The translations under genes and the position numbers were made by a program. From the NCBI GenBank assembly GCA_050084515.1, contig CM114271.1, positions 24,490,001 through 24,554,000 on the forward strand: a DNA stretch of 64,000 nucleotides. Direction: 5' to 3'. Under the pieces are notes generated by a model. That model had not been told where the DNA came from, made no database searches, and saw only the letters and a list, made by a program, of their open reading frames with translations. Positions 3,113 through 64,000 of the stretch are shown here, piece by piece. The DNA comes from Blasia pusilla. Lineage: Eukaryota. Position 1 is the first letter of the stretch; every line of letters starts with the position of its first letter.

Positions 3113-3296
<184 letters not shown>

Positions 3297-10330: not shown

Positions 10331-10364
10331 CTGCCTTCCTGGGTCTTTTGCGGCTGATTTTCCA

Positions 10365-27400: not shown

Positions 27401-29068
27401 GTGGAAAAATGATTAGGTGTGCCGTCTAAATCAAGACAACAAGATCCTCAAATGAAACTATTTTTGAAGAAAAGTGATTAGACGTGTCACTCTAAGTCAA
27501 GACATGGTGGTACACCTAGATTGGATAACTGTTAATTTTTTTTCAAAATTGATTCCATAACCTGAAAACATAAATATTAAAAAAATACAAACACCCCTAA
27601 CAACAATAATAAATATATTGTCCGTTCGAGTACGATGTTCAGTCTGAGGAAAACACCAGTTTACTATGAGTGTAAGCAGCAGGCTCTGTGTTTGGGGGGG
27701 GGGACCTTCTTTTGGGGCCCGTGACACAAGTCCCAGACCCAGTGACCAACCAATTCCCTCGGAAACAGTCCGTATGACCTCAGGTTCATAACGGTGGCCC
27801 GGGTTCCCAGTGCGAATACAGGTCGTGCGCTCAGTGTACCTTAAAATACGTGGGCCACGTGTGAGACCTCCTGCGTAGGGCCCGCGGTTTCTGTTCTGTA
27901 ACTTCTGTGTCGCTGGCGGCCGATGTCTGCTTTGCACTGATGCATCCCTCTACCGTCCTGCCGTTCTATCCATCTATTTACGCAGACTCAAGACGATGCG
28001 GGGTGATGGCTGCGCAACGACGGACGGGGTCTGTGGAGGAGGAGGAGTCCGTCTTCGGAACGGGAGGGAATTGGGGAGTGTTCGATCACGGGGAGGATTG
28101 CAGGTGGGAGAAATGCGGAAGTCTGGAAGCGAGGAGTGTACGGGGTGTCTGTGTTTTGATTGTGCTTGTTTGATGCTGGTGTGAAGATGATGGGTGTTTC
28201 GGGTGGTGGTGGTTGTTGAATTAGTCACGGGTTTCTTATGCGGAGTGATTTGGGTGTCTGAAACTCGTCGGCTGCAGTGCGGCTCATGGATCGCAGGCGT
28301 CCCTCGTGGTGTTGACCTACCTGCTCGGCGTTTTGGCGTCGAGAAGTTCTTGACGAAGGGAGGAAAGGAAGAATGGCAATTGGATCCGAGCTTCGGGTGG
28401 CTGCTTTTCCGAAACTCGGAAGAGTTCGATGAGTGAAATTGAGGCTCGCGGTTGGCAGAAGAGGAGTTGTTGCGATCCGGAGGTCCGATCATGCGCGATG
28501 AGCTCAGCAAATTTCGCCGGAGAGGAAGTCATGCTTTTCCGTTAGGATGGCGAGGAGGACGAGCTGTTTGATCCCGTCTCCTTTTCTTTTTCTCATTTAC
28601 CGTCTTCTTCGTCATTGAGATGCCGGAGATTGCTTGCTTTGAGCAGTCACAATTAGCACCCACAAAGGGCAGGGCACATCCCGGCGATCGATATCCTGTG
28701 AGTGCTGTGAGAATCTGTCAACTTCGAAGCAGATCTTCGGATGTGTAGAGTTTTTGTTGCTCCTAGTGTGGGAGGTGGGGATTCGTTTGACGAAAGATCG
28801 CCACGACTATTGCCGTTTTTCCGTACTTCGCGACTAGCGTCTGTGGCGCTCGTCTGGGATCCCATGGTTTCGAACTATGGCAGTGATGGGGTGGCGCTGT
28901 TGAAGGCTAGGGAATCGCCACGAGTGTCGGGCGTTAATTGATGAGCCTCCTCGTCTGAACATCAAAACAGGTTGCTCTGTCTGGGGGTTCCTTCGATCCG
29001 GATAAGGTAGAGTTCGCAGTGGCAATCTTTGTCTCCAGAGTTTCGAGGTGCGCCGCTGGTGTCGCCTA

Positions 29069-37900: not shown

Positions 37901-40900
37901 TACTGTAAACATCACACATGTTTACCTGGTCCACAAATCGTACTACTATTGGGTCGCTCTCGTATTCGACTTAGGCGCGTCATTAAGTTTACTTATGTGG
38001 CCACAAGTAAGATCACCCCAAGCCCCAAGACAGACTTCATCGCCCGCCGACGCTAGGGCGAGCCGAGTGTAATCCAACACAAGGTCCTGTTCTAGGTGCT
38101 TATCCACATACGAGCTCTCACCTCAAATACTCCTTGTCTGTCCTCTTGTCGTACATTCTAAGCCTATGATGAACGACTCATAGCCATGCACTACCACATA
38201 TAAATTGCAATCAACACTGGTATCGAATCTCCAAATCCATACACTCCTTTATTGCAACACTAGCATTCCTAGTTACAACGGCCTTCGGCCCAAGATTCCA
38301 CTGGTTACAAGTCATGTCTCTAGCTTCTCCTCGTACTAACGTATGTGCTTCGCTTGTGTTCGCTTGAAGTCACGCAGCAACTCTTGCGCGTGTTCCAAAT
38401 CTGCCTCCGCAATCCAAGTCGCCTCCTTCACATGGTAGCCCTTCCATTTGACCAAGTATTCATACTTGTTGGCTCGACGCCTCGAACGTAAGATGGTCTC
38501 CACCTCGAACTCCGGCTCCTCGTTTACGATGACCGGGTGCGGTCTCACCACCTGTCTCCGCTCGAAACGTCCATTATCTTGAAGATATTTCTTCAACAAT
38601 GACACATGAAAGGTCGGGTGAATCTTGAACTCGTCCGGCAGCCTCAACGTATACACATCCTCAAACGGGTTTGCCACAATCACATACGGTCCAAAGATAC
38701 TTACTTGATACCTTCGCAGACAACTCTTTCGGAAGAGTGAGATTCTTCACACTCAACCACACTTGTTCTCCAACTTGGAATCGTACTCGGCGCCGACTCT
38801 TGTTAGCATGCTTAACGTACCTCATTTGAGCCTTTGCAAGACTTCGCCTCGCGTTCTCTTTCGTTTCGCATCTCTACCAACAAACTTTTCCGCCGCTTGT
38901 CGTGGTGTTCGTGCCAATGTAGTACCCTTCGAAAGGGCTAGATCAAGAGGCCCTTTCGGCTCGTCCATTTGCCAGGAGAAACGGAGATTCTCTGTTGAGA
39001 ATCTTGGTCGAGTTGTAGCAAGATTCCGCCATGCTCACCACGACCCAATTGCGTTGATCAAGACCGACATAATTCCTCAAGTCTTGATTCACGATAGAGT
39101 TTACCTTTTCATCTTGTCCATCCGTCTGTGGGTGGAAAGCCGTACTAAAACTCAGCTTGGTCTTAAACCTTCTGAACAAGTGCTTCCAGAAAGCACTGGT
39201 AAACTTTGGATCCCGATCTGAAACAATGCTCCTCGGCAAACCATGAGCACGCCACCAGCTATCGAGGAATAGTTGCGCCGTCGTATACGCCGTTGCGGAA
39301 TCCACCGTCGGCACGAATCTCGCCAACTTGCTAAACCGATCAACAATCACAAGTATAGCGTTGTATCCCCCAGATTCCGGAAGACTCGTGATGAAATCCA
39401 TACTCACACTTTGCAAGGGTCCTTCGGGGATCGGCAAGGGATGCAGCAAGCCTTGTTTCTTATCATAAGAGACTCTATTCGCTTGGCAGGTCACACAGGT
39501 CTTCACATATTGAGCAACATCCTCCTTCATGTTGGGCCAAAAGAACCGCTTCGACAGAACAACTAGCGTAGATTTCTCTCCTTTATGTCCTGCCAAGGGT
39601 CCGTCGTGACATTGAGCTAACACCTTGGTTCGCATTTTGCCTTGCCCTGCATAGATCCTACTCTGTTTGAACCTTAGTAAACCGTGCCTCAAACTTATGT
39701 CGGCCACCTTCTCACCCTGCTTCAACTTCCTCAGGTATTCCCCTGCTTGAGCATCCTTCATATATCCTTCACGAATCCTTCTCTCCAGATCTGTTTCCTT
39801 AGGGAACATTGCTCTCAAGACCTGTGTCGTCGATGGCATGTGTTCCTCCTTGCGACTTAACGCATCTGGAATCACATTATCTTTACCTGGCTTGTGGATC
39901 AACTCTACATCCATCAGCGCCAAGGTATCATGCCACCGCAGTTTGTTTGGTTGTACTCGATCCTGGGTCTCAAAATACTTGAGTGATATATTATCGGTGA
40001 ATACTCGAGTCTTGTGGAGCCCTAGATAATGCCGCCACTTCCTCAAGCAATGTACCACCGCGAACAACTCTTTCTCGTGAGTAGGCCATCTCCTTTCAGT
40101 GTCGCTAAGCTCCAACGCGCAAACCATCTTAGCGTGAGCCCGCTAATGTTCCGATGTTCCGCTTGGCACTTGTTTGGTCATGAGGGTCGCGACAATCACA
40201 TACGGTCCAACATACTTGGCTGAAAATTTCCCAGACAATTCCTTCGGAAGGGTGAGATTCTTTACACTCAACCACACTTGTTTCCCGACTTGGACACTCA
40301 CTTGGGGCCTACTTTTGTTAGCATGCTTCAGGTACCTTAGTTGAGCCTTGGCAAGACTTTTCCTCGCTCGCTCTTGTCGTTCCTGCATTTCCACTAACAA
40401 ACATTCCACTGTTGCTTGACGAGTGTGTGTCGATGTAGCGCCCCTCGAAAGAGCCAAGTCAAGAGGCCCTTTTGGTTCTCTTTGATACGCCAGAAGAAAC
40501 GGAGATTCTCTGGTTGCATAATGCTTGGTCGAGTTGTAACAATACTCAGCCATACTTAGCCACTTGGCCCAATCCCTTTGGTCCGCACTCACGTAATTCC
40601 TTAAGTATTGGTTCACGACCGAGTTTACCTTTTTCCGTTTGCCCATCCGTTTGAGGATGGAAGGCCATACTAAAGCTGGGTTTGGTCCGGAACCTCATGA
40701 ATAGATGTTTCCAAAAGGCACTGGTAAAATCCGGATCTCGATCGGACACAATGCTCCTAGGCAATCCGTGAGCTTGCCACCAACTATCCAAGAACAATCG
40801 AGAAGTCGTGTAGGCCGTTGTAGAATCTCTCGTTGGCACAAACCTCCCCAATTTGCTAAACCGATAAACTATCACAAGGATAGCGTTGTATCCCTCAGAT

Positions 40901-43900
40901 TCCGGAAGAGTCGTAATGAAATCCATGCTAATGCTTTGCAAGGGTCCCTCCAGGATTGGCAAAGGACGAAGTAAGCCTTGTTTCTTGGCATAAGAAACTC
41001 TGTTTGCCTGACAGGTCACGCAAGTCTTCACATATTGAGCAACATCTTCCTTCATGTTGGGCCAAAAGAACCTCTTGGCCAAAACAGTAAGAGTGGATTT
41101 CTCCCCTTTTTGTCTCGCCAAAGGTCCATAATGACATTCCACAAACATCTTGGTCCGTAGCTTGCCTTGGCCTACATAGATCATGCTCTGCTTAAAACTT
41201 AGCAAGCCGTGTCTCAAACTTAGATTGGCCGCCTTCTCGCCCCACTTCAACTTCCCAAGCTACTCACTCGTTTGCGCATCCTTCATGTATCCTTCACGAA
41301 TCCTTCTTTCGAGGTCTGTTTCATTAGGGAAAATGGCTCTCAACACTTGTGTCGTCGATGGCATATGTTCATCCCTGCGACTTAACGCATCTGGAATGAC
41401 ATTGTCTTTCCCCGGCTTGTGGGTTAGCTCCACATTTGTCAACGCCAAGGTATCATGCCATGGAAGATGCTTTGGTGTAACGTGATCCTGGGTCTCAAAA
41501 TACTTGAGCAATATGTTATCGGTGAATACTCGAGTCTTGTGAAGTCCTAGATAGTGACGCCACTTCCTCAAGAAATGAACCACTGCGAGCAACTCTTTCT
41601 CATGAGTGGGCCATCTCCTTTCGGTGTCACTAAGATTCTTGCTCTCGTATGCTACATGTCTCCCTTTTGCACCAACATTCCTGCAATCGCAAAATCACTA
41701 GCATCAATGTGCACCTCGAACGGTTGGTCAAACTCTAGCAGCTTCAGAACTGGTTCATGCGAGACGATCTCTTTGACTTGATTGAACGCTTTATCCACTT
41801 CCTCAGTCCATGTTGTGTTGACAAACTTTGCGGTCCAATCTGTGAGAGGTTTCACTATTCCCGAAAAGTGTTTCACGTATGTCCGGTAAAATTGGACCGC
41901 TCCGATGAACCTCCTCATCCCCTTACAGTGGAAGGCGGTTCTCATTCGGCAATCGCGCTTACCTTCTCCATGTCTAAACTCACTCCATCTGCACTAACCA
42001 CATGCCGCAAGAACTTGATCTTCTTCAAACCGAACTCACTCTTATCCGCATTTGCATACAGCTTGTTTGCCCTGAGTTTCTCAAACACCCTCTTGAAATG
42101 TCGAGCGTGCTCCTCTAGTGTTTTCGAATAGATGAGTATGTCATCTATGTAGATGATCACAAACTCATCCGTCTCCTTATGAAAAATGGAGTTCATCAAA
42201 GTGGTGAATGTTGGAGGTGCATTACAAAGACCGAAAGGCATTACCACAAACTCGAACGAACCGTATCTCGTCCTACACTCAGTCTTCTCTACATCCGCTT
42301 CGGCAACCCGAATCTGATAATATCCTCATTTCAGGTCAATCTGGTTGAAATACTTGGCACCTGACAAACGATCAAAGAGGTCATCCATCCTCGAAAGAGG
42401 ATAGTTGTTCCTTATCGTCACTTTATTCAGCGCCCGGTAATCAACACAGAGTCTCAACTTTCCATCCTTCTTCTTCACAAAGAGGACGGGTGCTTCATAA
42501 GGTGACTTGCTAGTTCGGATGTAACCCCTCTCTAGGAGTTCACCCAATTGTTTCTTCAACTCAGCAAGTTCTTCTTGATTCAACCTATATGGTGCCTTTG
42601 AAGGTGGTTGAGATCCAGGTATCACCTCTATCTTATGATCAACTGCCCTATGTGGTGGCAACTCAGTCGGAAGCTCGTTAGTCAACACATCTCCAAATTC
42701 TTTCACAACTCTCTTGAGTGTTTCAGGGATTCCCCTTGAAGCTGAGTACTGATCTCTACATCTTGCGCTTGCATCATCCTCTACTTGTCTCATCAAGCAA
42801 AGGAATCCTTCCTCTAACTCGGCCAAACTCGTCCTCGTGATGGCGTTCACCAACTCCGTCTTTCTAGGAACCTCACGAACCAATCTGACGTCCGTCCGTT
42901 TTCCGTTAACCAAGACGCTCAACCTCAAAGGTCTTTGCCTTAGTTCCACCTCATATGCATCCAAGAATGTGTTCCCCAAGAATCCATTGATTTTTTCCAT
43001 GTCGCTAAGTGTGAAATTATCCTTCAACTCGAATACTCCGCATCCCATAACTAGCCCTAAAACCAGCTCTGAGGTCTGGTGGGACTTGCCTCCCGCGAAT
43101 CCTACCCTAATGGGTTCATCTGCCTTAGTGGTTGGCAATCCCAACATCTTCACGATTCTCGGGCTCAAGAATGAGTGTGAAGCACCTGTATCAACGAGCA
43201 ACATCACATCGCGATTAGCGATCTTGGATCCTAGGTAAACCAAATTGGGCGTTCTCTCGGTGACTTGGAGAGATGCATCTAGATCTCCTGCCGATAAGTG
43301 CTTAGCAGCAAACGCAATCATACTCGATTTACTAACCTTGGGCCTTTCACATTCCTTAGCCATATGCCTGGGTTCCCCACAATTGTAGCAAATCACTTTG
43401 GCGTTTATTGACTTCGGGAACATCGGCCCTCTTGGCTTCGCGTTGAGTTCCACTCGTTTCGCTGCTGGGGCAAGAGACCCTCCGTGGTCGCGCTCACCCC
43501 CATTCCAAACCCTCTTGGATGTCCCTTTGTTTTTTGGTAACTTAGAAAAACTTTTCAGCTCAGAGGGTTTTTGGTTTTGGACTTCATCGTCCCCTATCCA
43601 CTCCGCTAGCCTCAAAAGCTCCGCGCACGTCTCTGGAATGTGAGGCATAAAATAGAGGGCCTTTTTGGCACTCGGTTTGAGTCCACTTAAGAAGATCACC
43701 TTCTTTGTAAACTCACCCGTGGAAAGTGAGCTCATGAGTGCACTTAACTCTCGCACATAAGCACTAAGGGATCCGCTTTGGCGCAACCTCATAAGCTCCA
43801 TGCTATCGCGATACTCTTGATATTCCAGAGGGAATCGGTTACCAATCAACTCCTTCAAATCTTCCCAACTGAAAGTTCTTCCACGGCCCAGATGTTCTTT

Positions 43901-45395
43901 ACGGTGAGTCGTCCACCAGTGGAAGGCGTGATCCTTCAGAAACGTGACCGCTACAGTCACCTTGTCTTACTCATTTCCCTTTTTTGCTTCGAAATAAAGT
44001 TTGAGTTCCATTAGAAACTCGCTCACTTTCCGAGAACGCCCCATTTATCTGAATGGCATTGGCAAATTTGTCTTACAAAGCTTCTTGCCGGAACTAGAGG
44101 CTCCATTCGACTTGAGTTCTACCATCACCCTGCTCTATTCGGCCATCTGGTCCAGCATCACCTTCATCAAACCCCTCATTTGGGTATAAAAGGCAGGGTT
44201 GTTAAGTTTGGAGCCAAAGGCCCCGCGGAAAGATTTGCGTTTGAACCATGCTCTTGACTTGGACTCGGCACTTTGGGAGTTGTAATCTCTACCTCAGGCT
44301 CATGGTCCGTCATTAATTTGTCTCTCGTCTTTTTTGCTTTGACTCGTGGCTTCCTCCGTTCTTCGCCCTTGGTCGCCATTTGTGAGTCCTCCCTTTCTCA
44401 GATCTACTCCTCGTCTCTTGCATTCCTCCTCGAGCGTCGTTGTCGTCTTGCTACCTTGAGTTCTTCTCAAACGTCCAGATCTTCTACGACCACAAGTTCA
44501 CACTCATCAAGGATTTGCTCTAATACCACGTGTCCTCCGCCTACTCTCCTTGAACTTTAATCTTGTTGTTGCGGAAGCGTGTGTTCAGTAGGTCACGCTC
44601 TCAACATTGATCTGCATCCAAACACACACTCTGGTTAGTCAAGTCTTGAATCAATCAGCGCGCTAACTTTCTGAGTTCTTGTCTTGTTCTCTCATCAAGC
44701 TCAACCTTCCTTGTTTCGCGGTTTACAACATGGGAAAGTCTCAAAAGACTCGAGACAGACTTTATAGTCGGTTCAGGAATCTCAAACGGCGTTTCGCGCC
44801 TAGTGGTTCCAACTGTCCCATGGACATCCAATGAGTCCCTAACCGAGACTCCTACAAAGTGAATCTCGGTTCAGAATCTAAGTGTGGCATACAAAGTCCA
44901 CTCCCTTGGATTAAGTTTGGGTTTCAAGTTCCAACGCCAAACTCCCATTCCATACGTGCCTCTGAGACGCCGTTTCGTGCTCAAAGTGGGGATTCGTGTT
45001 CCAAGACATCTTGGAGAGAATCCTCCCTTACTAGTACTTCTGGGAATATCCAGGGTTCCCTACATTCAAGGAAAGACATCCGGGCCTCTCTAAACGTTAT
45101 GGTCCAAAACACATTCAAATTCCCCAAACGTTAGTCGTGTTCCAAAACTGGTTCTCATCTCTTTGGCAACCAACCTTCCAAGACTCAACTCATCTCAAGT
45201 CTTGGCTCGCGTTTGGTCTAGGTTTCCTGGTTGCGACCACTAACGCATGAAACGTAAAACTCTACTCCACGTTTCGTCTCTTCGACTTTTCCAATAGAAC
45301 TTTCCAAAAGCCTCTCCAAAGCGCGAACATTGCAGCGTGAGTCCACTTGAGTTCTGATGTTCCGCTTGGCTCCTATTTGGTGTTGTTTGGCGACA
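34937..45395 (-). mobile_element. Ty3/Gypsy chromovirus D, two LTRs, carrying a nested insertion
   Basis: LTRs 34937-~35920 and 44531-45395 (TG...CA), near-TSD ttagg/ttaga, Met PBS at 44517-44528. gag-PR-RT ORF 42326-43960 (LVDTGAS), RT YIDD at 41942-42247, RH and INT at 40200-41950, chromodomain at 36320-36640. Confidence 0.92.
36646..40194 (-). mobile_element. Nested, internally deleted chromovirus related to D
   Basis: ATCAC TSD at 36641-36645 and 40195-40199. Full 3' LTR 36646-37648, PPT 37649-37660. RH-INT ORF 38943-40127 and chromodomain ORF 38336-38683 (EFEVETIL..YLVKWKGY..ATW). Only ~85 bp of the 5' LTR remains (40110-40194). Confidence 0.92.
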
Positions 45396-49600: not shown

Positions 49601-52600
49601 CTCCTCGCCATAGAAATTTTAGGAATGGGAGTATCCTCTGCATAGACATGTCCCTCAATCAAATCACTAGGCCAATTGATGGCATTGCTAAATGCTGCTA
49701 AGGTCGCCATCTCTCCTAGCCGTTGCTCAATCACTGCACATCTGAATCAAACAAGTAATGAGCTAAGGCGCCCATCACATTACTGCCATCATGGTCTGTA
49801 GGACGCTGACTCTTCCCAATAGTCCCGGGAAAACCCCATCAGGTATAACACTGCTCCACCAACCAAGACGTCGTAGGACTCTACATCAGTCACTATCGCC
49901 TTGGCTCGCACCACAGACTCATCTGTAGGATGTCCGAGGAAAATCCTCACCACAACCTCATGTCGGGTGATATACTGTGTGGTACTCGCTCCACCCAAGG
50001 ATGTCTATATCCGGAATGGACAACGCTCCACATCGGCTCTCGTCAAGCCCAATCCTCTCAATGACGCTTTCCCCAACATAAGGGGTTGCGCTCCTGAATC
50101 CAACAAGACGCGTTGCGGACTAAAAGCTCTACCTCCCAGACTCACCAACTAGAAAATCTCTCCAGCAACACAACACCAATAAGCCATGGCACACTCTATC
50201 GCGGGTCTAGTAGGCATCTCTGCCATCCTAGCAGCCGCAAACTGCCATGAATCTCACGTGGATGGACCGAGCATCCGCTCCAAGGGCAGGTCCATCACCT
50301 CCTCTGCAATCACCTCTGAACGTGATGCAAGAACTCCAACTCCACGCTCACATAGCGTAGCGGCCAGCCGAAAAGCCTCGGCGGGCGTATCCCCCAACGT
50401 CATAACATCGGAAGCAGAAAATAATCGAGTGCAGTACACAATGGTGGCCGCCCCCAACAACGTGCTCGACACATGCCCCTCCTGAGCATAAATAATAGGA
50501 GTCGTTGCACTCGCTTCTCCCATGGCCCTCCGTGCTTGCATACCAACAACATCACGAACTCTCTAGGAACTCTGATCAGGACCCATCGATGGGGTCCTCA
50601 TCGCCTCGGACAACGTGAAAGACTGAGGAAGCCTAGTCTATTTCTTGGCTCCCCTTCACTGTGGATCCAACTCTATGGCTGCTCCATGCATCACAATTGC
50701 GGCAACCTCCATCTGGGCAACCCCGCACATCCAACCAGGACCCTCCATATCTCTGGCTGCTCCATATGATGTCGATGCCACGGATGGGGCATCGGGTAAT
50801 CTCAATGTCATAGCAGCAATCTGCTCATGTAGCTGATGTATCTGAGCAACCATCCTAGCCTCACACTTTGCATCTCCCTCAACGCGTCTAGGTGGTAGGA
50901 CTCTACCTCCTCCACGGGCAGCTCTACCACCCTGTCGGGAAACTCCAGCTCCTCATCCCCCAACGCGACCACCTAGTGCATGATCTCTAGGCCCACCTGG
51001 ACTGGCTACTCGCTCTGGCCCTCGGTCCGGACATAACTCAAGATGTAAACTGAAACACCTGGCGCGTGTATTACCATACCTTTAACAATAGTCACACTGA
51101 TAACCTCCTGGTGCACCACCATCTCCTCCTCCATGCAGAGGCACACGTCCATGACCCTAACGAGTGCAATCGCGTTGATGATGGCTCCACCACATGACGA
51201 ACAAGTAATAGTAGGCGGCTGCTACAGAGCCGCATATGAAGGCGCAGGTCTCTGTGGCACGGCCTCCCGATATCCTCCCTGAGCTCGTAGTGCCACAGTC
51301 AACCTATCTCAGAGTCCACGTTGCTGCACAGGTAGTGCAGACAATCGTGACTGCTCTCGCCCAGAACCCATGGTGGCTACACTCTCCTCCGCCATGTTGC
51401 GCTCAATGTTCTCGATGGTCTTGAAAACATCTCTCAACGTACGGGAGGTGTTCATAAGAAGCACCCCCTCCCGCACTCGTGTCCGCAGGGTCCGATCCAA
51501 CATCACATACAATGATTGGATAGCCTGAGCCTCTGTCACCCCTTGAGTGACGTTGATCAACCGGCGCAAGCGAGTGTAAGCCTCACGAAAACTCTCACCG
51601 GGGCGCCTCTGGAAGTCGTGGATGCTCCGCAACTTCTCCGTCCGTACCCTGTGGTACTTGGCCCTCAACTCAGCAAAGAACTCAACCTCAGCGTTGAACG
51701 TGGGACGAACCCGAATAGACGGTGCAACTACTCCCGTGCGAGTGACCCCTCCTAAAACGTCACGAGTGGAAGAGGAAGTAGCCTCTCCTCACTCCTCGTC
51801 CTCATCTGGGAATGGCTCCGTCCATCACACATAATGTGGGTCATAGTAGAGCCTCTACGCCTCGATGTCACGTGCATATCTCTGAGAGAACTCATGGTAA
51901 TCGTCCATGGGTGACCCTCTAAATGTTGGAACATACCGTTCCATGCTTATAACGGGTTGAACTCTCTAGAGTTCCCGGCCTGCTGCGAGTTGCACCAACT
52001 CCTAAACTCTGCTATGAAATCGTGCAACTCAATCGTGCCTACTGCACCTGAAAACCTACGGGGTCCTCTAACTTGATCGTCCATCTCGTACGCCCAACTG
52101 GTAGGACCACTCACAATGTGTGGCGATGTGCTCACAAACTCCTCTACACGCTCCCCCTCGTCTGAAGACGAAAGAGAAGGAGATCGAGGTGGTCACTCAC
52201 GTGGAGACCCTCGAAACCTCGCACCACTCCGGGTAACCCTCTAGAGCTACTCTCAAGTCTACTACCTCGCCTCTCAAAATCCTGAAAGGGCGCCATGATG
52301 GCCCTCATGCCCCTCTCACACGATCACTCTCAACCTCGCGAGTAATTCCTCAATCATTCATCCCAAACATGCGGCACTCGATCTACACTCTCCCTCCCCG
52401 AGACGTGTAACATGCAGCAACAAGCGGCGTGGTGCGGCAAATCGACAAGGCTATCATCTCATCGACAACCTACCCTCAACTTTGGACATCCCACACAGGT
52501 CTATGTCCCCTAAACCACATACATAAATAATGCTCTCAGCTTCCACACACCCAATATCCCCAAATAAACCACCCAAATCCCAGAATCTCTCACACGTGCA

Positions 52601-52780: not shown

Positions 52781-53149
52781 TGCAGTAAGAGGAGAGGAAG
52801 AGAGGAAGAGAGGAGAGAGGAGAGAGGAAACTACCTTCAACCGAAATAGATACTTTTTTTTGAAGAGAGTTTCCGTTGGGTTGAAGAGATGAAACTTTTT
52901 GTGTGAATTTTTTTGCACTTTTTTGTTCATTTATTAAACAATCCCACAGTTTTTTTTTCCTCTTCCATATTTTGGCAACCCCTGTGAGTCCGACGAGTTG
53001 CAAATTGCACAAAATTTACAAAACTGAAAAATCAGTGGAATCATAAGTGTGGAACCAATCACTTTTTCCATCCAAGGTCTGGAAAAAATCTATCATTTGC
53101 CCCGGGCTGAATAGAGTTCAAGCTCACAGTGAAGGTTGAGAAAAAAATA

Positions 53150-56100
53150 AAAGTACAATCTAAAACCTCATTTTGCATCCTCAAAGTGGTTTGTTTAAAA
53201 TACTTGAACTTCTTTGAGGGATGGGGTGGTTGGTGGATTCCTACTCCTACCTCCGACTCTCTTAAAACTACCAAACAACACATAGTACATGTGCTTACAA
53301 GGGAAATACCTTTTGCCACTTGTCTCTCTTTGGACAAAGTCATCACATGAACATGTGGGAAAGCAACACATGTGCACCATATACACCCCTGTGACACTTG
53401 AATTTACAGTGTTGCTCCTGACCCAATACATCCTTCCTATTCCATTGCCACTCAGGACATCTTTCGTGGCGATGATCTCCATTTTTGCCTCCCGAGCTGC
53501 TGCTATTCATTTTGCTCTCTCCACCGTTGGCCTACACATTCTGTTTCTCTTCACCCCATTTATAGACTCAAACAGAAATAATGGATTGAGATCATCCACC
53601 TTCTCCGGGTACATGTTGACATCAATCTTGGGTTGAATACGAAATGCGAAGGTCTCTGTAATGCGAACATGCTCCGAACTTCCCCCGTCTACGAGTCTGA
53701 AACCGGCACTTGTAAGATTGTCCACGCCGTCTTGAGTGCGATTCGTACTGCGGCGATGGGCCAAATCGTGGGGGTATTCCCGGGAGCTCTAATGGCAGCC
53801 GGATAAGACTTCCGGAAAGCGCAAGATTCATTTGGGCAGAAGAAGTACTTCAATTGATCCCCGGTCCTCGTGAAACGATCAAAGGTTTTGAGTCCCCAAA
53901 ACCCAGGCAGCGTGATCGTCGATCCTTTATGATTCTTATTTGGGAAAGTGCCGCATGCTCTCCTAATGCCATCGAGATCTGCCCTGTCAGAGGTGGGTCC
54001 ACGTCTGGTTGCTCCGAGATATATGCCACCGTTTTAGGTTGCAATCCACCTCCATTACCGGAATCCCATATTGTTGAACCACCCCAGTGACAGGATGTTG
54101 CGAACTTCCAGCAACGGAGGGCTTTTGAAATAAAACATTCACTGATTTTGGAGAAGTAACTCCATCACAGATTTGGGACGGGTCCGGGGTCCCCGAATAC
54201 TTGGGCGGTGTAATTTCCTCATCCAAATCAATCACCGGATTTGTTCCTCGATGCTGCCTCTTCACTTGCCTGAAGTCAAGATACTTATCTGGTCTCCACG
54301 AGTCTCGTTCGGACTGCTCTACCACCATCTGTATGGGACGTCTTGAAACCCGCCCACGAATATCCCCACCTATGTGTACGTCTTGCTCGAGTGGAGTTCA
54401 CTACGCACCGGTTGAAGGCCGACATACAATTTTTCATCACCAGATCTCATAGCCGCCCTGACATAGAGCTCGTAGATCGACGGCCCTTTTCCTTTTGTTA
54501 TGCCTTTTGTGAGGAAGATATGAGATGCTGCAGATTGTAGCATTGCTCTTGCCTGGTCTTGTTGGCATGCCTCCACAAGTGAAATTCGTTGGCATGCTTG
54601 TGATGACCTCCAAGAGGAATGAACACTTTCTGCTCCACTTGTGTTGGGGCAAAGGGCATTTTCATGAACGTTCAATCCCTGCAACGACGGCAATGTTAGA
54701 AGGGAACGAAAATAACCCAGGAGTCAAAGAAATAAGCGACCTGTCGGAACCAGACGGGTTGCAGGCTCGAGGCATCCCATGAACGACTCTGCGACACGTC
54801 GGGTCCCGACGTGTTGTAACCTTAAACCCACCTACTGCAACCCGTCGGAACCCGACGGGTTGCAAGGCCGAGGCATCCCATGAACGACTCTGTGACCCGT
54901 CGGGTCCCGAATGGTTGCACACTTGGGACCACACCAAACATCTGGATGCAACCCGTAGGTTTCCGTCGGGTTGCACACTCGGGAAACCCGTCGGTTTCCG
55001 TCGGATTGCACACTCGGGCAACCCGTCGGTTTCCGTCGAGTTGCACACTCGGGCAACCCGTCGCATCCGACACCTTGCTTGGTTTCTTGGGTTTGAATTC
55101 CATATAATTCCCACGCTTCTCACCCTGAGCTACAACTTTACAAACAATTCTCAGCGTGAGCTTGACAAGACAAAATAGTGAACTCACCTGCCCCATGAAG
55201 TTTCCCCATTGTCTCACACGTACAGTCCACCAACTCAACCAAGAGCACGACTCTTTGTACTTCCCCTCAATCGCATGCTTCCTCCACCACCCATGAAGTT
55301 CTTCCTGGCAGTCCATGGCCTGCTTCAAGGTTTTGCTGTCCTTGCAGCGTTGGAGTAGAGTCACATGCTCTGTCCTCTTATTCTCCTTGATGCAAGATTT
55401 GGTGTATCGGATCACAGACTGTTGCCAATGGAAAGCATCCGACCTTTCCCTCTCCGGTTGAACCTCTCCACCCCAGAACACTTCCCGGATAGCAATCCAC
55501 CCAGGTTGTGCATTGTCCGCCATGAACCCATAAATTTCCGGAGGTGGCTTTTTGTTTTCCTTCACCACCTCCAATAAGAGTGACCAACACATCTTCAAAC
55601 TGCCAACGTCTTCTGCCTTTACTTCACACACAAATATAGTTTTGAGTCCCTTCTCCACATGGTCATAAACGTGAGCACCCATCGTCAACCATCCGTTCAG
55701 CACTCTGTAGCAAATATCAAAGTTGACCCAGCTCCCGTAAAGATCTTCCCCTTTCCTCATTCGATCTATTAGATCGAGGCCACTCGAGGGACGTGTGGTT
55801 GACATTTTGAAGACATAGGCCCTGGATCCCTCGCCTCCTTGGCCCATGAACTGCCATCTCTGAATGAATGGAAATCTGGAGTTGGCCTTGATTCTGGCGA
55901 TGGCATCCATTTCGGCCGTCTTTCCATCCAGAACTCGTATCTGACGCAACAAATTCCGGAAGCATTAAGGATCAGCGAGAAATGCGAGATTTTCCCAAAG
56001 TTGTTTCTCCTCAACCGCCGTGATCTCGCCCTGTCCAGGAATTCCAAGCAATTGTTCACAAATTTGTGATGCCGTTGTGAGCTTGATCACCCCGGGCTTT

Positions 56101-56900
56101 GAACGCGGAGAGTTTCTGAAGACCTCGGCTACTTTCTTCGCCACATCCTCCTTGATGTGTCTTTGAATTGCATCGGTCACAGGATGAGTGTGGGAGCCAA
56201 CATGAAGCGCCACCTTGTATACTCGGCGTGGAGCCCAAGTCATGGACAATGAAAAATATGTATGCAGGACACGCTCCAACGAAGGGCGATGCGACAATGA
56301 GGACATCGATGGCCTCCCGGCGGTATTGTGGCACCCACCTCGTATGGAGTTTCTGCATTCTTGGGGGAATTGCGGCGTATTGACTCGCCCGTTTGCGCTC
56401 TAGATACGAGCATGCTGGACTTCTACACTCCAAGGCTCCCACGCATTGGCGGCGGGAGACAATCCAAGGACCATCGGGATGGAAGCACCGGTCCGTTGCG
56501 TACCTGCACCATCGATGACAATCAGACTTTCTGTCCATACCCTTCAGGCGTCCTCCATCCTTCTTTTGAGCAGGAGCAGCAAGTGGAGGCAACTCAAAAA
56601 TGCAATTACCATTGTACGTGGGCTGCAGCTCATTGACAAGAATGTGCTTGAACATTTTCAAGGCGTAGACGAAAGCAAACTATTGCCGATACTCGCAAGA
56701 GAACGAGTAGGCGGACACAGGCCCGATTGGTGTCCAAGCAGATCGCCGAGGTTGATAACATCCGGAATCTCTTGAGGAAGAACAACATTGTTACGAGTGT
56801 GCAAAGTTGGAGTCGAAGCCAGATCTGCAGAGCTTGGAGTTGCAAACGTAGAGCTCGGAGCACTAGGAAATTCTAGACCGTCTACTTGGGAAACAGACGA
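53150..56900 (-). pseudogene. MULE-type DDE transposase with N-terminal GCM/WRKY-like Zn finger and C-terminal SWIM finger, frameshifted; intron 54679-55187
   Basis: N-term RRQCVGALECRSPAC..GACPAY..HVGSHTHP. Catalytic core NFDICY, FMADNA, DAFHWQQS. After splicing (GNFMGQ|gtgagt...gcag|GLNV) comes GAESVH. SWIM CSCDDF..PCKH in ORF 53195-53482. Confidence 0.85.
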
Positions 56901-59900
56901 ATTCAGGGAGGGCCGTAAACTTTGTATTGACCATTTGCTCTGGTAGGAGATTCCATACTTTACGGTGCGAGGTCACTTTGGATGGACCGTCTCACCTATT
57001 ATGTCTTCCGTACCTTCCACCCTAACATCTTTGGATACAAAGATGGTTCCAATTGAAGAAGAAATCAAGCAGACAGAAAATTTTCATCCATTGCTACGAA
57101 AGACTCACGAGCTTGGGGTCGAATGATTTCGATTGAGGAAGGGCATAAGATGACCGCCACAAGTGAGCTTAACATAATTATCCATTCCAAGAAGATTCCT
57201 ACGAGGAGAGGCGAGAATGAGAATGAGAATATTTAATTTATAGTGAATAGGAAACAAATACTCTGATGATTTTTCTTGACAAGATGAATTCGGTGGGGAG
57301 ATTATCGACACAATGGATCAATTTTGTAACACATTCAATTGTGTTGCAATATGTTACCGGATTTGGGAAGCATAGGGTTGCGCATCACTTGGAACCCGTC
57401 GGAGTCCTGGTAACTCAGAAATTACCCGAAGCTTACCGAAGCCTACAACCCGTCGGCATCGGACAGGTTGCACGCTTCTGCTAAACATTGTCGAAGCGAG
57501 CAACCCGTCGCTCTCCGACGACTTGCTGCGATACCGCTCCTTCTTGCTCGAAGATGCCGGAGGCGTGCAAACCGTCTGTTCCCGACGAGTTCCGCGGGTG
57601 CCTCGCCTTTTAGCCCAAAGACGGCGAGGCGTGCAACCCGTCGCCGTCCAACGGGTTGTGCAAGGGCGTCGCCTTGTGGTGCAGCCAGCCAAACTCCGAC
57701 GACTTGCACGGGAAGCCATCGTTCCTAACCCTTGATGAGGGAAGCGTGCAACCCAACAGTCTCCGACGGATTGCCCAAAATACGTCCGTTCCGTCCCAAA
57801 CACGCGGAGGCGCGCCAACATGTCGGTCTCCGGCGGCTTGCGCGGGTACCTCGCGTTGTTTTCGAAGACGACGGAGGCGCTCAACCCGTCGGTCTCGGCG
57901 GGTTGCTCGCCCACGCGTGGCGATTTTCGCAGATTGCGAGGCGTGCAACATGTCGGTCTCGACGGGTTGCGCGGGTACCTCGCGTTCTTTTCCGAAGACG
58001 ACGGAGGCGCTCAACCCGTCGGTCTCCGACGGGTTGCTCGCGCACGTGGTGACGTACCCAGGATGGCGGAGCCAGACAACCTGTCGGACTCCGACGGGTT
58101 GCGATTTTTCACGTCCGGACTTCTGTAACATTCGGCACGTCGCCGTCGAAAGGACGACGGGACCCAACGGTCAGCCCAACGGCTAGAAAAGTATAAATAG
58201 GGCAGAAATCGCTCATTTCCGGTTTCTCATTTCGCGATCTTCATTCCTCACTCCTCACTCTCCCGCGCAGCAGCTGATCAGATATAAAGGGGCATTTCAC
58301 GCGGCGACACATCGCGAGTCGATAGGAGGGAACGAGAGCGAGACGGTTCGACCGAGCAATATCGGGACGATTCGAGCTAACCATCAAGGCGAGACGAGCT
58401 CCCATCTCGACATCAACAAGGCGACTGATCAAGGGATTTGTCGTGGGCATAGGTGGAGGCATTTCCGGCAAAAATGACGAGGAAAAAAACACAATCCAAC
58501 AAGTCTGGGAGCTTCACTCCCAAGTCCATTAGGACTCTGCGTCGACTTCTCTCCCGGCCTCGTTCGCGAATGAAATTAAGCGGCAGGAAATCGAGGAGCG
58601 GAAAGGGAAGCGGAGATGCACAACCAAGTGCTTCTGGCGAGACGTGTTCAAGCGGCGCTAGATAAAGCGAACGAAGAGGCCGGGCGTCGCAGGCCTTGAA
58701 GAAAAGGATCGCCGGCGAAAAGAGAGAAAAGAAGCGCCGGGCGCGTCGGTGAGGAGGCGGAATTGGCTAAAGCGAGGCGGAAAAAGCGATAGCCATTGCG
58801 ATAGCCCAGCCCATCCAACCGCAAGTGTTGAGATGCGGGAAATGTCCCCACGAAGTCGGGGACACAATCAACATAGTGGAATCAACACCGAGTTCAAATC
58901 GATGACGACGAGGTCATGAGGAGATGACGCAGGAGGTCAGCGTGGAGATGGTGGACATGGGGAAGAAACCGGAGAGCGGTCATTTCGACTCCAAGCCGGC
59001 GGAGGACATCGACCTCTATCGGATCGACGAGTTCCCGATCGATTTGCCCCTATCTCAGACAAGTTAGTGGTCAAGAAACCGACTCCATTTTCGGCGGGTA
59101 AGAGAAGTTAGGTTTTTAATTATGTGAATTGCAATTCATTGGGATTTCGGTGTAGCTTATTCCTCTTGTCCCATTCGGCGGGTGGTAAAGCGCAGATGGC
59201 ACTCATGGAGGCCCAACGCCCGAGGATTCCACTCTGCGATTAAGGACAATGGAATACGTCCCAAAATCTGATCCAGCGAGGACATCGCAAAGCTAAAACA
59301 ATCGGCGCATAAAGCATCCCTCGTGGGCGAGTTTTCCTCCCTTCTATGTTCGGCCTTACGGACGAGCATGGAACCCAAGCTCAGTTACCGAGGAGGACTT
59401 GGAAAATCTCGACACATTCTACGGAGGATGCGAGACCAAGACTTGAGAAGGCAAGTTGAGGGCACGGAATTCAGCTGGATGAGGAATCTACATTTCTTCA
59501 TCTCGGGATGGAAATCACGAGTTCATGGCGTGGACCAAGTTTGCGGAGGAGCGCCCCAACTCATTGAGGCACATTTCTGCGTGAAGGCGGTGGTCCTTCA
59601 CCCATACCCTCATCACATGGCGGCGGTGGAGATGGCAATGCATGCCATGAACACGTAAGTATCTTTAACATTTTCGCGGCTCGTCGGACTCGGCGAGTTG
59701 CTCGATTGATGAATGGGTTAGGTTTGTTTAGGCGAAAGCAACTTCGTCGGACTCGGCGGGTTGCTAGAAAACACTGATTTTCGGATGTTTTTAAGATTGA
59801 TTTTCGTCGGACTCGGCGACTTGTTTGATGGAACATAAATTTAACTAGTTTTTGGCCCAAAGCAAACCGTCGGAGTCGACGGGTTGCTGACGAGCCGCCT

Positions 59901-60490
59901 TGTGAGGTTGTTTTTAAGAATGCAACTTCGTCGGACTCGACGAGTTGCTCGAGTAACAGCGAGGTTTAGAAGGTTTTGCCCCAAAGCAACCCGTCGAAGT
60001 CCGACGGGTTGCTTGCCTCAAACCATTTTTGGCGAAATCAACCCGTCGGACTCCGGACGGGTTGATATGGGGAAAAATAGCTTTGAGGCAAGCAACCCGT
60101 CGGACTTCGACGGGTTGCTTTGGGGCAAAAACCTTCTAAACCTGCGATCCTCGAGCAACTTGTCGAGTCCGACGAGTTGCATTCTTAAAAAACAACCTCA
60201 CGAGGCGGCCTATCGAGCAACCCGTCGGACTCCGATGGTTTGCTTTGGACCAAAAACTAGTTAAATCTATGTTCAATCATACAAGTCGTCGGAGTCTGAC
60301 AGTTGCAATCTTAAAAACATCCGAAAGCGTCGCGATCAAAGAACCGTCGGAGTCCGGCGAGTTGCTTACCTGGCATTAGCAAATCTGAATGCAACCCGTC
60401 GGACTCCGACGGGTTGCATCATTTAGCTTGTTGCTAGAATCCGACCCTGAGCTGTGATGACCCGTCGGAGTCCGACGAGTTGCAGGAACC
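54740..60490. repeat. Clusters of the palindrome GCAACCCGTCGGA-N-TCCGACGGGTTGC
   Basis: Perfect copy at 60391-60417. Many variants at 54740-55070, 57370-58130 and 59680-60490, plus copies or half sites at ~52975 and 62372-62450. Confidence 0.95.
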
Positions 60491-62150
60491 CATGTAATTT
60501 CCTGACGGGTTGAGTTTGGATGTGTAGGATTGTATCCGAGGGGAATGTCACCCACCATTGGATCAGGACTGCAATCGGGTGAGGAAGGTGCTTACGACGC
60601 ACCCAGGAGAGTACAGGGGGTTCTTGGGCGATGCCCTCGTCAATCACATGCTTGCAAAGGATGCTCAGATTAAGAAGAAAACTTGGGCAAACAAGTTTAT
60701 TTCTCAAGATGCAGCCATAACCATCCTTTGCTGGTCGAAGATACAGCACAAGAAAAGCGCCTGACTGGAGCCGGAGCGGAGGGAGAAGGTATCTAAGTCG
60801 AGCGCCAAATTCATCAAGCCAGATGTCTGCTGCAACGAAATACACGGCGAGCAAGATGCGGCGATACATCAAGCATTCTCAACCCCGAACTTGGTCCGGA
60901 GTTCTACAAGGAGCTCAAGGCGATTATCAGCGTCGGCGGAAGAGGGATGAAGATCCCATGGTCGGAATGGGGAGAAAGTGTCATTTGGATCGCGTGCATC
61001 GTTTTGCGTTATCCGGGATTAGCGAGTTCAGAGGATACGATCGATGAAAATCGATCTCGAGGGCTCAAAGGCCGGAAGAGGGCGACACACCATCCTCGGG
61101 TGTGTCCGATCTAGTGATCTCGCATTGGCTACGTGAATGGTCGTTCGGGGCGGCGTTGCGGGTAATCGGGAAGTCCGTCTTTGGCCGACGGATGATGCAA
61201 GCGGAGCTCGAGAAGATTAGAGCCCATCCGCCGGAAGCAAACCTTGAAAGTTATGGAGATTACGAGGTTTGGCTCGGCGACATCGGGACAAGCCAACCAA
61301 GAACCAGGATTCAAGACCATGTTCAAGGTTTGCGTCCTCCCTCGGCGAGCTTGACGAAGAAGTAGAGGGTAACAAACGGGATCAAGCGAAAGAAGAAGCG
61401 AGATCTGAGGAGCGACGGCCGATAATGTTCGACTAAAAGCTGCCCAACGGATGGTATTCAGGTACCTCATCGAGTGTAAGAACGCAGGTACGTGGGGAAA
61501 ATTACCGGCATCCTTGAAATTGTGGGCTTCGCCGTCGGATGCAGAGACATTCTCCATGTACGACGTGGAGATGGGTCAGCACATGTCGGATTGGGAGGTG
61601 GAGAATTGCCCCATTTGGCTCGACTTCAACGACCCTGAAGACATCATGGATAAGGACTTACGAGTGCTTCATGATGCAATGGCCTCAGGACAAGACGACA
61701 TCCCCAATTTCGTCCAGCCTGAAGACTTCTTCGTTGTACAATTAGATAGTTTGTACAATTCGCCCCCCGGGAATTTACATGCAAGACAGTACCCCGGTTC
61801 TGGGAGGAAGGGAAAAGTTGCCAGCCCTGATGCAAACGCTCATCAAGCTCTGCTCAAGGCCGGGTGACTTGGTGTTCGACTTAGTGGGCCTTTCAGGGCG
61901 AGTATCGAGGCGCTGGCATAGTGGCAGGAACATTCTCGCCTCGAGGAAGGCAGAAGCGTTTGACCTTTGCAAGGAGGCAAAGCGAATCTGAAAGGCTCGT
62001 TGGGGCGTATAACTCTCCACCGAAGCCGAGAGCTCCGGTTCCAGAGCCACCCTTGGTAGTGACTCCATCATCACTTCCAACGATTCCCAAAATCGGGAGG
62101 GCAAGGCCGAAAGTGATTTTGCAAGAGCTCTCGGACGATGACGAGTGAGT
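58474..62150 (+). pseudogene. Spliced cargo gene: basic N-terminus, ParB/Srx-like motif, N4C/N6A methyltransferase-like C-terminal segment; frameshifted
   Basis: TATAAATA at 58192. GT-AG introns ~59098-59155 and 59655-60527. FFI/DGNHEFMAW at ~59494-59533. REKLPALMQTLIKLCSRPGDLVFDL..HSGRNILA in ORF 61779-61991. Confidence 0.55.
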
Positions 62151-62460
62151 TCAAAGAACTCAACGACCAGCTTGATTTGCGGCGTTTGGAGTAGGGACTT
62201 TTTGATAATTTGGCGAGAAGATTTCATAGAATAGATCAAATGTCTGATTCCAAGCTTTTTCGGATGATATAAAGCAGAAGATTTATTCGATCGATGGTGG
62301 TGCTTGTAAATGTTTGGTGATCATTTTGTCTTTCGAATGTGATCGTCTATGTACTCCACGGTCTTCTACTTTGCAACCCGTCGGATTTCTCCCGCTTGCA
62401 ATTTTCACTTTATGACCATCGCAACCCGTCGGATTTCTCCTCCTTGCAACTTTTTGCTTT

Positions 62461-63720
62461 TTGACCATGGACCCTTTTACCACCTCCAGGCAGCTTTGTC
62501 TGATTCGACAGTTGCCTGATCGGACCCTTTCGGATCGGCGATGGCGGGCTTCTTCCCTTGGCACATTCCCTCAACTCGTAAAGGAAGGCGAGGCTTCTTT
62601 TCTTCTCGACGTGTTGGATTCCTTCTACCTGTGCGGTTGCCATAGTGGTATTACCGGGGGCGGAGCAGATATTGATCTTGGATGGGTGTCACATTGCAGA
62701 GCGTACAAGGTATCTTGCCGAGGAAGGCGGTGGGACTCGAGACAGTTACATGGGACCGTTATGGTGTACCTAGGGGGGCCAAGGCTCTCGGTCGCCAACA
62801 TTTTCGATCCCCGTCTACAACCGGCCGGGAGGAGCCACTTGAATCCCGGGACATTCCTTTGGTACATGCCATCGAGGAGAGTTAGGAGTAAATTTGTAGA
62901 TGACGAGGTGAAGAAATCATAGACTAGGTTCAATGTACATTTCGAGGTTCCTTCGGAGGTAATAAAGGGCGAGATTTTTGAACCCATAAAGGTGTTGGTA
63001 AAAGTTTTCGGAATATGTTTTTGGACTTGTGGAGGTGGTGCAAGAGAAAGGCCCAAAGGCGAGTGTCCAAGAACAAGTCAAGAAGATTGTACAAGGTGAT
63101 AATGCAGCCAAGTCACTCCATTGACCTCAAGCCTAGAGGAGACAAGGGAGATGGTGTAGGCACTAGGGAGTCTCAGGGTATCCAATGAAGGAGATAGAGT
63201 GCTTGATTGTTTGTTGTAGAGGAGGGTTTGAACCAAGGGGTGGATCTGATTGTTAGGGCCAAGAAATGAAGAATAAGGGGCTAAGAAGAGGTCAATGGAG
63301 GCTGAGCTCAAATGCTTGGACTCTTGTGGGCTAGAAGATTCCTCATGGAAGCCTAGAGGACCTCATTTGAAGGCCATAAAGCTTGAGAATCCAAGGGAGA
63401 GATCTATGGAGTTGAGAGGATCCAAGGAGTGATTTGTGGAAGATTTGTGCGAGGTGGAGCTAAGTGGAGGTGTGAGCGAGGGCGGGGCTCGAACCAGATT
63501 GAGAAGAAGCAAGCATGGGAAGAATATAGAGGTAGATCTCACCTTCAAGCATGTCCAAGAGACAGTCGAGCCTATGCCATCAATGTTGCTCAAGAGGCTT
63601 TAGTTAGGGCAGGTTTAGAAGTAGATGAGGTAGAAATTTCAGGCAGTAGATGCCTTGGAGTAGATGCTTAGGGTTGGCATCCGGGTGGTCCTCCAACAAA
63701 AATACCAAGGGCACCTTTGC
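62461..63720 (+). pseudogene. Possible third, unrecognised coding region of the MULE-like element
   Basis: Coding-like + strand ORFs 62461-62922 and 63429-63671 with purine-rich degenerate frames between them. No motif recognised. Confidence 0.3.
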
Positions 63721-64000
63721 TTTTTTGTTGACCGAGATGGGGAGATGTTAAGAAACTTAGGCTCACATGGAGAGTGATGGAAAAATGTTTGTAGTGGTCT
63801 TATGATGTCTACTTTTTTTTCGCCCCAAGGAAAAAGGAGGTTTTTTTAGGGCCAAATGTGGACCACTACCTACTCTCTTCTAAAGATTTCATGGATTTGA
63901 AAGCAAACAAAAATTTCAAATATGTCATAAAGTTTTGAAGAGAGGAGGCGGATTTGGCCCTTTTTTTTGAAGAGAGACTCTCCTCTCTTCCTCTCTTAAA

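Follow-up and report, generated by a model that had tools for sequence, protein, structure and literature searches.

A probable decayed Mutator-like DNA transposon with a divergent, rare-family accessory gene and element-restricted palindromes in a plant-like genome

Introduction

Reports of transposons that combine a DNA-modifying enzyme of their own with arrays of binding sites are recent and come from algae alone. According to the accessible parts of those reports, the 21.5-kb element Sola1-1_Ec32 of the brown alga Ectocarpus carries an accessory gene with a ParB-like and a DNA methyltransferase part on the strand opposite the transposase (PMC12477816); in the Plavaka elements of the red alga Bostrychia, PAG2 joins PF01555 to a SET domain, PAG3 joins a ParB-like domain (HHpred E value 0.29) to a 2OG oxygenase, tandem inverted-repeat arrays adjoin PAG3, and PAG homologues are reported for Chondrus crispus Mutator elements as well as for Zisupton and Fanzor-encoding elements (bioRxiv 10.1101/2025.02.11.637652). 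The same algal transposon literature, in the parts accessible to us, cites green algal cases of such accessory genes, and the accessible text of Iyer and colleagues describes, for algae and chytrids, adenine methyltransferases that are linked to ParB and originate from phages (PMC4738411). Here we analyse a locus that probably represents a related kind of element in a plant-like genome. It lies in the right-hand part of a 64-kb window of contig CM114271.1 (the window being the whole stretch of 64,000 nucleotides analysed), where a transposase gene and an accessory gene of a rare family stand head to head and share one family of palindromes.

In plant Mutator-like elements (MULEs), the usual second genes are mudrB, the VANC genes of VANDAL elements, or genes of the Ulp1 type; the bacterial branch of the Mutator superfamily is IS256. 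An earlier note on this DNA had proposed an undescribed transposon family with a ParB-like and amino-methyltransferase-like second gene. The word “undescribed” holds in part: accessory genes of the ParB-like/PF01555 kind are known from algae, as the accessible parts of the sources state (PMC12477816; bioRxiv 10.1101/2025.02.11.637652), but at the level of literature listings we found no report of ParB-like or methylase accessory genes in MULEs of bryophytes or other land plants. A land-plant case, if true, would extend the idea to the lineage in which transposon silencing is best understood.

Results

Two divergent genes share an element-restricted palindrome

A broken transposase gene occupies 53198-56679 on the minus strand (read from 56679 to 53198) and is traced by a chain of open reading frames (ORFs), by homologues and by a modelled DDE core. 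Facing away from it on the plus strand, a broken accessory gene runs from an ATG at 58924 to a stop at 62146-62148. The minus-strand transposase ORFs and the plus-strand gene, which splices in phase, bear out the head-to-head layout that had been proposed. Both genes are broken in this copy by stops and frameshifts. The core of the element spans at least 52975-62468, and the element may perhaps extend over 52798-63997.

The two genes are accompanied by a repeat whose unit is a 27-nt palindrome, made of two 12-nt arms and a 3-nt spacer, which folds as single-stranded DNA at -17 to -18 kcal/mol (z -8). The repeat family common to both genes, already claimed in the earlier note, is real: all 33 matches to the 12-mer half-site (at most 1 mismatch) fall inside 52990-62432, where 0.21 would be expected, and 27 of the 28 matches to the palindrome core (at most 3 mismatches) fall inside 54741-62432, against 1.28 expected. 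The units form five clusters within 9.5 kb, in both genes, and none lies across 54 kb of flanking sequence; they are placed in introns of both genes, between the genes, and 3' of both.

Given without strand, the clusters are as follows from left to right. The outermost left unit (52975-53004), 3' of the transposase gene, is degenerate, with its inner arm alone intact, and forms no hairpin (z -0.29); 7 units stand in a transposase intron (54736-55064), including a 35-nt tandem repeat in 3.3 copies (54948-55063); 10 units with a period of about 64-66 nt stand between the divergent genes (57391-58170); an array in intron 2 of the accessory gene (59676-60499) builds a 548-nt inverted duplication (59779-60326; self-match of 87.7% over 559 columns); and the two outermost right units (62373-62468), just 3' of the accessory gene, form a 48-nt repeat in 2 copies, again with the inner arm alone intact. 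The outermost units on the left and on the right thus retain only their inner arms, so that the intact arms face each other. Judged from the sequence, a genome-wide satellite would explain this distribution less well than cis-acting binding sites that belong to a single mobile unit.

Two side observations concern the arrays. The inverted duplication, if transcribed, would give a long hairpin RNA that could feed small-RNA silencing of the element. A TATAAATA motif lies at 58194-58201; the last intergenic palindrome unit ends about 25 nt to its left, and the accessory ATG follows about 720 nt downstream.

Candidate ends of the element

A candidate left terminal inverted-repeat arm at 52798-52817 (plus strand), which lies in a 44-nt homopurine tract (52787-52830), matches a candidate right arm at 63978-63997 (minus strand), 3 bases from the window end, at 20 of 20 positions in inverted orientation. 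The pair are the only two matches at up to 3 mismatches in the window; moreover, of the 10 tracts in the window that are purely purine or purely pyrimidine over 18 nt or more, only those of the terminal pair match each other. Beside the outermost palindrome units, a search for longer terminal repeats yielded only a 16-nt match (15/16) between the 52975-53004 region and 62370-62385, within the range of shuffled sequence, and long terminal inverted repeats were not found at the element ends. Elsewhere in the window we found neither a second copy of the element nor a further member with palindrome units. The confinement of all 33 half-sites to the element, the presence of units in both genes, and the uniqueness of the terminal inverted match together argue for one mobile unit.

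A DDE transposase of Mutator-like character

The transposase gene begins with a Cys/His-rich N-terminal exon (56679-56410, minus strand), which is conserved with the relative P0001, and continues on the same strand with the DDE core (56399 to about 55190, placed by homologues and by an AlphaFold2 fold), an exon with the putative third catalytic residue (54723-54373), whose pattern we take to be the MULE motif around that residue, and a SWIM-like exon (53506-53198) in which a C-x-C ... C-x-H pattern is visible. A 380-residue ORF at 54822-55964 has seven relatives in a collection of 5.8 billion proteins (best E 4.2e-65, 45% identity). In tblastn, residues 160-234 of the 660-residue P0001 align to 56637-56410, and residues 307-647 align to 56216-55194 in another frame; because this alignment crosses an in-frame stop at 55965-55967, the gene is broken.

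An AlphaFold2 model built from a nine-sequence alignment has a mean predicted local distance difference test (pLDDT) score of 61.6, with block means of 75-92 over residues 50-250, and strands and helices follow one another in its core as they do in an RNase-H-like fold. A Foldseek search of the Protein Data Bank (PDB) with this core returned chains of the transposase of ISCth4, an enzyme of the IS256 family, at all of ranks 1-5 (E 2e-4 to 4.9e-3; best probability 1.00), followed by generic RNase-H folds at E 0.025 and above. In the ESM Atlas, the nearest clusters of the transposase ORF are MULE clusters (0.93, 0.93 and 0.92), a lead only, as these matches have 151-158 of 256 features in common, fewer than is typical of matches within a family. 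Of the DDE and SWIM transposase described in the earlier note, the DDE part stands on fold and homologues, and the SWIM finger (PF04434, E 0.0057, 16.6 bits) stays below the Pfam cut-off of 19.6 bits. No Pfam match (the only resource consulted for this) to an N-terminal zinc finger of the WRKY/GCM1 type was obtained for the window ORFs. On the modelled fold and the homologues, we class the transposase as Mutator-superfamily-like, not as a demonstrated member.

A broken accessory gene from a rare family

The accessory gene (58924-62148, plus strand) was assembled from a three-frame reading, in-phase GT-AG junctions and collinear tblastn matches to the homologue P0009. Its spliced reading comprises exons at 58924-59062, 59156-59655, 60528-61327 and 61440-62148. 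The introns at 59063-59155 and 59656-60527 are bounded by GT and AG and splice in phase: exon 1 has the donor GTTAGT, exon 2 ends at GTAAGT, and exon 3 starts at 60528 directly after an AG. A third intron at 61328-61439, which joins two frames in phase, is likely. The reading is interrupted by in-frame TGA codons at 59269 and 60762 and by frameshifts within 60797-60947, near 61100, within 61746-61811 and within 61951-61990. The frameshift near 61100 is verified by P0009, whose tblastn matches switch frames collinearly, from one frame at 60875-60904 to another at 61102-61278 and back to the first at 61436-61723.

A full HMMER scan of 1.84 billion representative proteins with a 152-residue ORF of the gene as query returned two homologues only: P0008 (E 9.7e-5), which derives from a 1741-nt contig, and P0009 (E 5.4e-4), the hypothetical protein R1sor_013312 (KAL3687003.1) of the liverwort Riccia sorocarpa. 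Both share a conserved central domain with the gene at 61436-61723 (plus strand), detected by phmmer and confirmed by tblastn (E 7e-11 and 1.6e-11). By sequence, the accessory family is real, rare and unannotated; the transposon probably belongs to a plant lineage with bryophyte affinity.

Further searches did not enlarge the family. A profile of P0008 and P0009 found no protein beyond these two; when the 152-residue ORF was used to look for longer proteins, 144 candidates yielded none; scans of metagenome contigs with that ORF and with the palindrome pattern, of viral contigs with the transposase and accessory alignments, and of genome contigs with the accessory alignment gave no matches, the last including no bacterial relative. 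A legumain likeness of the 152-residue ORF (PDB, E 0.0037) was treated as chance. The AlphaFold2 prediction for the Riccia homologue was unusable (pLDDT 33.7).

A methyltransferase-like stretch without a recognisable catalytic half

Downstream of the conserved domain, weak profile and tblastn matches identify a stretch of about 50 residues (61812-61961, plus strand) that resembles the S-adenosylmethionine (AdoMet) motifs X-I-II(-III) of beta-class N6-adenine/N4-cytosine (N6A/N4C) DNA methyltransferases (METHYLTRANSFERASE-like). The searches used a 73-residue piece encoded at 61770-61988. This piece matches PF01555 at E 0.023, over positions 168-193 of the 221 in the model, with 15.1 bits where the cut-off is 26.7. 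Its only PHROG matches are three families, all of them DNA methyltransferases (E 0.0043, 0.016 and 0.29), and in the PDB it matches, over the same residues, precorrin-6Y methylase (E 0.1) and M.RsrI (E 1.4). Its tblastn matches to phages, in 156 records, are all weak (best E 0.02); among 60 rows sampled evenly from their ranking, 45 lie in genes whose annotation reads DNA methyltransferase, adenine methyltransferase or type III modification subunit, the others being “DNA polymerase” (2), hypothetical or unnamed (5) and unannotated (8), and 25 of the best 30 rows are methyltransferases. Three of the matching phage enzymes are clear PF01555 members (E 1e-24 to 1e-30). Run against a 3.5-kb subject, tblastn reaches E 2e-5 to 1e-4 at the stretch, and a hidden Markov model (HMM) of the three phage enzymes matched no other piece of the accessory gene.

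The only site resembling motif IV, N-S-P-P-G, lies 13 residues upstream of the AdoMet stretch, compared with more than 100 residues between motif IV and motif X in the three phage beta-class enzymes. Because of this short distance, motifs V-VIII must be missing or unrecognisable, and a catalytic half (motif IV with V-VIII well upstream of X) was not recognised in the accessory gene. The peptide Y-N-S-P-P is in fact encoded twice, at 61754-61768 and 62008-62022, in different frames that flank the AdoMet-like stretch; four of its five codons differ between the copies, at synonymous positions. A Y-N-S-P-P after the AdoMet motifs would suit a gamma-type order, and one before them a beta-type order.

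For the homologue P0008, the three named ESM Atlas clusters nearest to residues 295-454 are all MT-A70 (0.88, 0.87 and 0.85), again a lead only. Pfam gave no MT-A70 (PF05063) match for P0008 or P0009 at E 0.1, and PF05063 was found nowhere in one phage record and the control genomes; P0008 itself has one irrelevant phage match (E 7). Taken together, the amino-methyltransferase likeness noted earlier survives in the AdoMet motifs, with 45 of 60 sampled phage matches behind it, but it stays below the Pfam threshold, lacks the catalytic half and is not detectable in the homologues. We consider it likely that the C-terminus of the accessory family descends from an amino-methyltransferase; in this copy the module appears, from its sequence, to be truncated or degenerate.

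The ParB-like N-terminus that had been claimed for the same gene found no such counterpart. Neither the exon 1 nor the exon 2 pieces match ParB in Pfam at E 10, nor does exon 2 read through its stop (P0012; PF02195, E 10); PDB sequences, PHROGs and NCBIfam gave no ParB match, and in tblastn the N-terminal pieces had zero matches up to E 10 in the full set of phage and plasmid records. Visual inspection of exon 2 shows a pattern with a loose likeness to the ParB/Srx core. A reading of exon 2 as a chain of frameshifts that yields a ParB-like motif was dropped, as a single 165-codon frame with one TGA and in-phase splice sites fits better.

Surroundings of the element

The window as a whole is eukaryotic, plant-like and dense in transposon remains. 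To the left of the element lie Gypsy- and Copia-type ORFs for reverse transcriptase, integrase and gag, together with a single protein kinase ORF. Fragments of long terminal repeat (LTR) retrotransposons at 8012-11657, 14612-16774 and 38946-43966 (minus strand) and at 19321-19989 (plus strand) encode reverse transcriptase/RNase H, protease, zinc-knuckle gag, integrase and Copia-type gag, and two integrase-bearing segments (38673-40109 and 40189-41634) are duplicated at 80% identity. The kinase frame, 595 residues at 29006-30790 on the plus strand (Pkinase E 9e-39), is the sole clearly non-transposon gene seen in the window. A homopurine tract of 182 nt at 3114-3295 is nearly all (GA)n microsatellite.

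Directly left of the element, at 49789-52192 on the minus strand, ORFs resemble, by eye, the gag of a retrotransposon; the only one scanned (51312-51788) has no Pfam match at E 0.001, and no matching LTR was found within the window. In public DNA sequencing runs, 6-40% of the sampled 31-mers of 52900-62600 are present, under five organism codes and in air metagenomes; 15 runs contain part of this interval (largest share 0.40), and no RNA run is among those listed.

Discussion

Our analysis suggests that the locus is probably a decayed autonomous cut-and-paste DNA transposon of the Mutator/IS256 kind, whose rare-family accessory gene carries a stretch descended from the AdoMet-binding half of a methyltransferase and whose palindromes would serve as binding sites. 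The proposal of a Mutator-superfamily-type unit with a divergently transcribed second gene and repeats of its own draws support from the layout, the repeats and the transposase fold. In an intact copy, the transposase would have its RNase-H-like DDE core between a Cys/His-rich N-terminus and a SWIM-like C-terminus, and the approximately 27 palindromes would be putative sites bound by a dimeric, element-encoded protein; these sites would be arrayed in the common promoter region and in the introns of both genes, with inward-facing half-sites at both ends. Such sites could mark the DNA of the element as its own and hold its ends and interior together, and binding to them may bring the methyltransferase-like module to the element. 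The binder is predicted to be the accessory protein with slightly better than even confidence, and the zinc finger of the transposase would be a slightly less than even candidate. The role proposed for the palindromes resembles the one proposed for the ParB-like accessory proteins and inverted-repeat arrays of red algal transposons.

Several results weigh against this interpretation. Regarding the transposase, the Pfam models of the superfamily (PF10551, MULE; PF00872, Transposase_mut) match none of nine family members even at E 10, and the MULE model likewise matches none of 20 window ORFs at E 0.1 and none of four relatives at E 0.01; in VIA-align, ISCth4 ranks first (Z 8.3, root-mean-square deviation (rmsd) 11.7 A), and retroviral integrase cores follow within 1 Z unit, so that the fold shows a DDE core without placing it firmly in the Mutator clade. 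Regarding the methyltransferase, hhalign of the 73-residue piece with the three phage PF01555 enzymes gives a probability of 92.6 (49 columns, 35% identity) that is inflated, as these enzymes were chosen as best matches to the same piece; the aligned part covers a proline-lysine stretch, a glycine-rich loop with an altered glycine pattern, and the following strand. P0008 and P0009 match no methyltransferase family in Pfam, PHROGs or NCBIfam, the sole PDB match of a C-terminal profile of three sequences is a Rossmann dehydrogenase (E 0.54), and the C-termini of the homologues, which carry D-W-P-F and D-L-P-T at the place equivalent to N-S-P-P-G, align to the phage enzymes at the catalytic motif with hhalign probabilities of 7.3 and 1.7. 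Regarding the ends, the inverted match pointed out in the earlier note exists and is unique in the window, but both arms are low-complexity, homopurine or homopyrimidine sequence; the match stops at 20 nt with no inward extension; and no target-site duplication that ends at 52797 is compatible with AAA, the three bases that follow the right arm. Finally, binding of the palindromes, whether by the accessory protein or by the transposase, is a prediction only.

Three other explanations bear on the same evidence. The accessory protein could unite a ParB N-terminal domain with a complete beta-class N6A/N4C methyltransferase derived from bacteria or phages, and bind and methylate its own transposon for self-marking or anti-silencing. 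The methyltransferase-like character of the stretch at 61812-61961 speaks for it, as do the (D/N/S)-x-P-P-like motif 13 residues upstream, whose equivalents in the homologues align with phage motif IV at low probability, the MT-A70 lead for the P0008 C-terminus (0.85-0.88, from the ESM Atlas), the palindrome arrays, which would suit a ParB-like binder, and the algal precedents. Yet exons 1 and 2 gave no ParB signal in any of the resources searched (Pfam, PDB, PHROGs, NCBIfam, and phage and plasmid tblastn), the 13-residue gap from motif IV to motif X is far from the more than 100 residues of beta-class enzymes, no bacterial relative came out of the genome contig scan, and the structure prediction for the Riccia homologue failed (pLDDT 33.7); we regard this explanation as unlikely. 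We are equally doubtful of its extension to intact members of the family, which would be land-plant Mutator-like elements whose accessory protein, of phage or bacterial ancestry, binds the element's own palindromes and deposits N6-adenine or N4-cytosine methylation there, as a self-marking or anti-silencing device and a land-plant parallel to the ParB/methylase accessory genes of algae. Such a protein may share ancestry with the liverwort sperm N4-cytosine methyltransferases; the Marchantia N4-methyltransferase preprint makes no mention of ParB or of a transposon origin.

Alternatively, the stretch could be a gene fragment captured in the manner of Pack-MULEs, or a chance likeness, in an accessory gene that encodes a non-enzymatic, MURB-like helper, with the zinc finger of the transposase binding the palindromes. 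The stretch is present in this copy only, in a different frame from the conserved domain, and the homologues end without it and match no methyltransferase family; MULEs, in the accessible parts of the sources, capture gene fragments and carry varied accessory proteins (PMC6431247; PMC12973397). It does, however, continue the family-conserved region directly, a single frameshift would join the two frames, 45 methyltransferases in 60 sampled matches make pure chance unlikely, and the homologues may be truncated gene models, P0008 lying on a contig of 1741 nt; this explanation keeps a small but appreciable chance. The third explanation, in which a Mutator-like remnant adjoins an unrelated gene of the host or of another element and the palindromes are a satellite amplified locally or a miniature element, is quite improbable. 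The region is indeed a mosaic of transposon fragments, the 548-nt hairpin of units looks like a nested foldback insertion, and the terminal match is weak, but five clusters of units within 9.5 kb in both genes, with none in 54 kb of flanks, and inward-facing half-sites as the outermost units on both sides fit poorly with unrelated neighbours. We prefer the decayed Mutator/IS256-kind transposon with a partial methyltransferase half.

Since this copy is dead and its enzyme part fragmentary, its value is that of a pointer to a rare bryophyte transposon family and to an unannotated accessory protein; a new mechanism is not demonstrated by it. In a true land-plant case, the palindrome, being short and well defined, would be a testable target.

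The comparison with known systems places the locus as follows. Structurally, the modelled catalytic core comes closest to ISCth4 (PDB 6xgx, 6xg8 and 6xgw); ISCth4 differs in that identity is 14-20%, the TM-score is about 0.23 and the rmsd is large, and in that it is a bacterial insertion sequence without an accessory gene. In En/Spm (CACTA) elements, TnpA binds subterminal 12-bp repeats, which occur in both orientations near the element ends. The locus resembles them in having an accessory protein and short repeated motifs near its ends, with binding a prediction here, and it differs in superfamily and in that its motifs are true palindromes that are also internal.

With MuDR and the plant MULEs the locus shares a two-gene organisation, a transposase with a DDE core and, in the locus, a putative SWIM-type C-terminus, and a lineage-specific accessory protein, as far as the accessible part of the source describes them (PMC12973397). 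Unlike theirs, its accessory protein is of another family and its transposase goes unmatched by the MULE models of Pfam, and long terminal inverted repeats were not found in it. To our knowledge, internal palindrome arrays are not a described feature of MuDR. The algal elements with ParB-like/PF01555 genes differ from it in several respects: here the host is land-plant-like, the searches gave no ParB signal, the methylase is recognisable in its AdoMet half alone, there is no SET or 2OG domain, and the arrays lie in introns and in the common promoter region, all compared by description. Like them, in the accessible parts of those reports, it has its accessory gene and its transposase on opposite strands (PMC12477816), an N6A/N4C methylase signature of bacterial type, arrays of inverted-repeat units beside the accessory gene, and a degenerate state, as do most of the algal copies. 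The locus is best described as a dead copy of a rare family, and as a land-plant variant of the kind of transposon recently described in algae.

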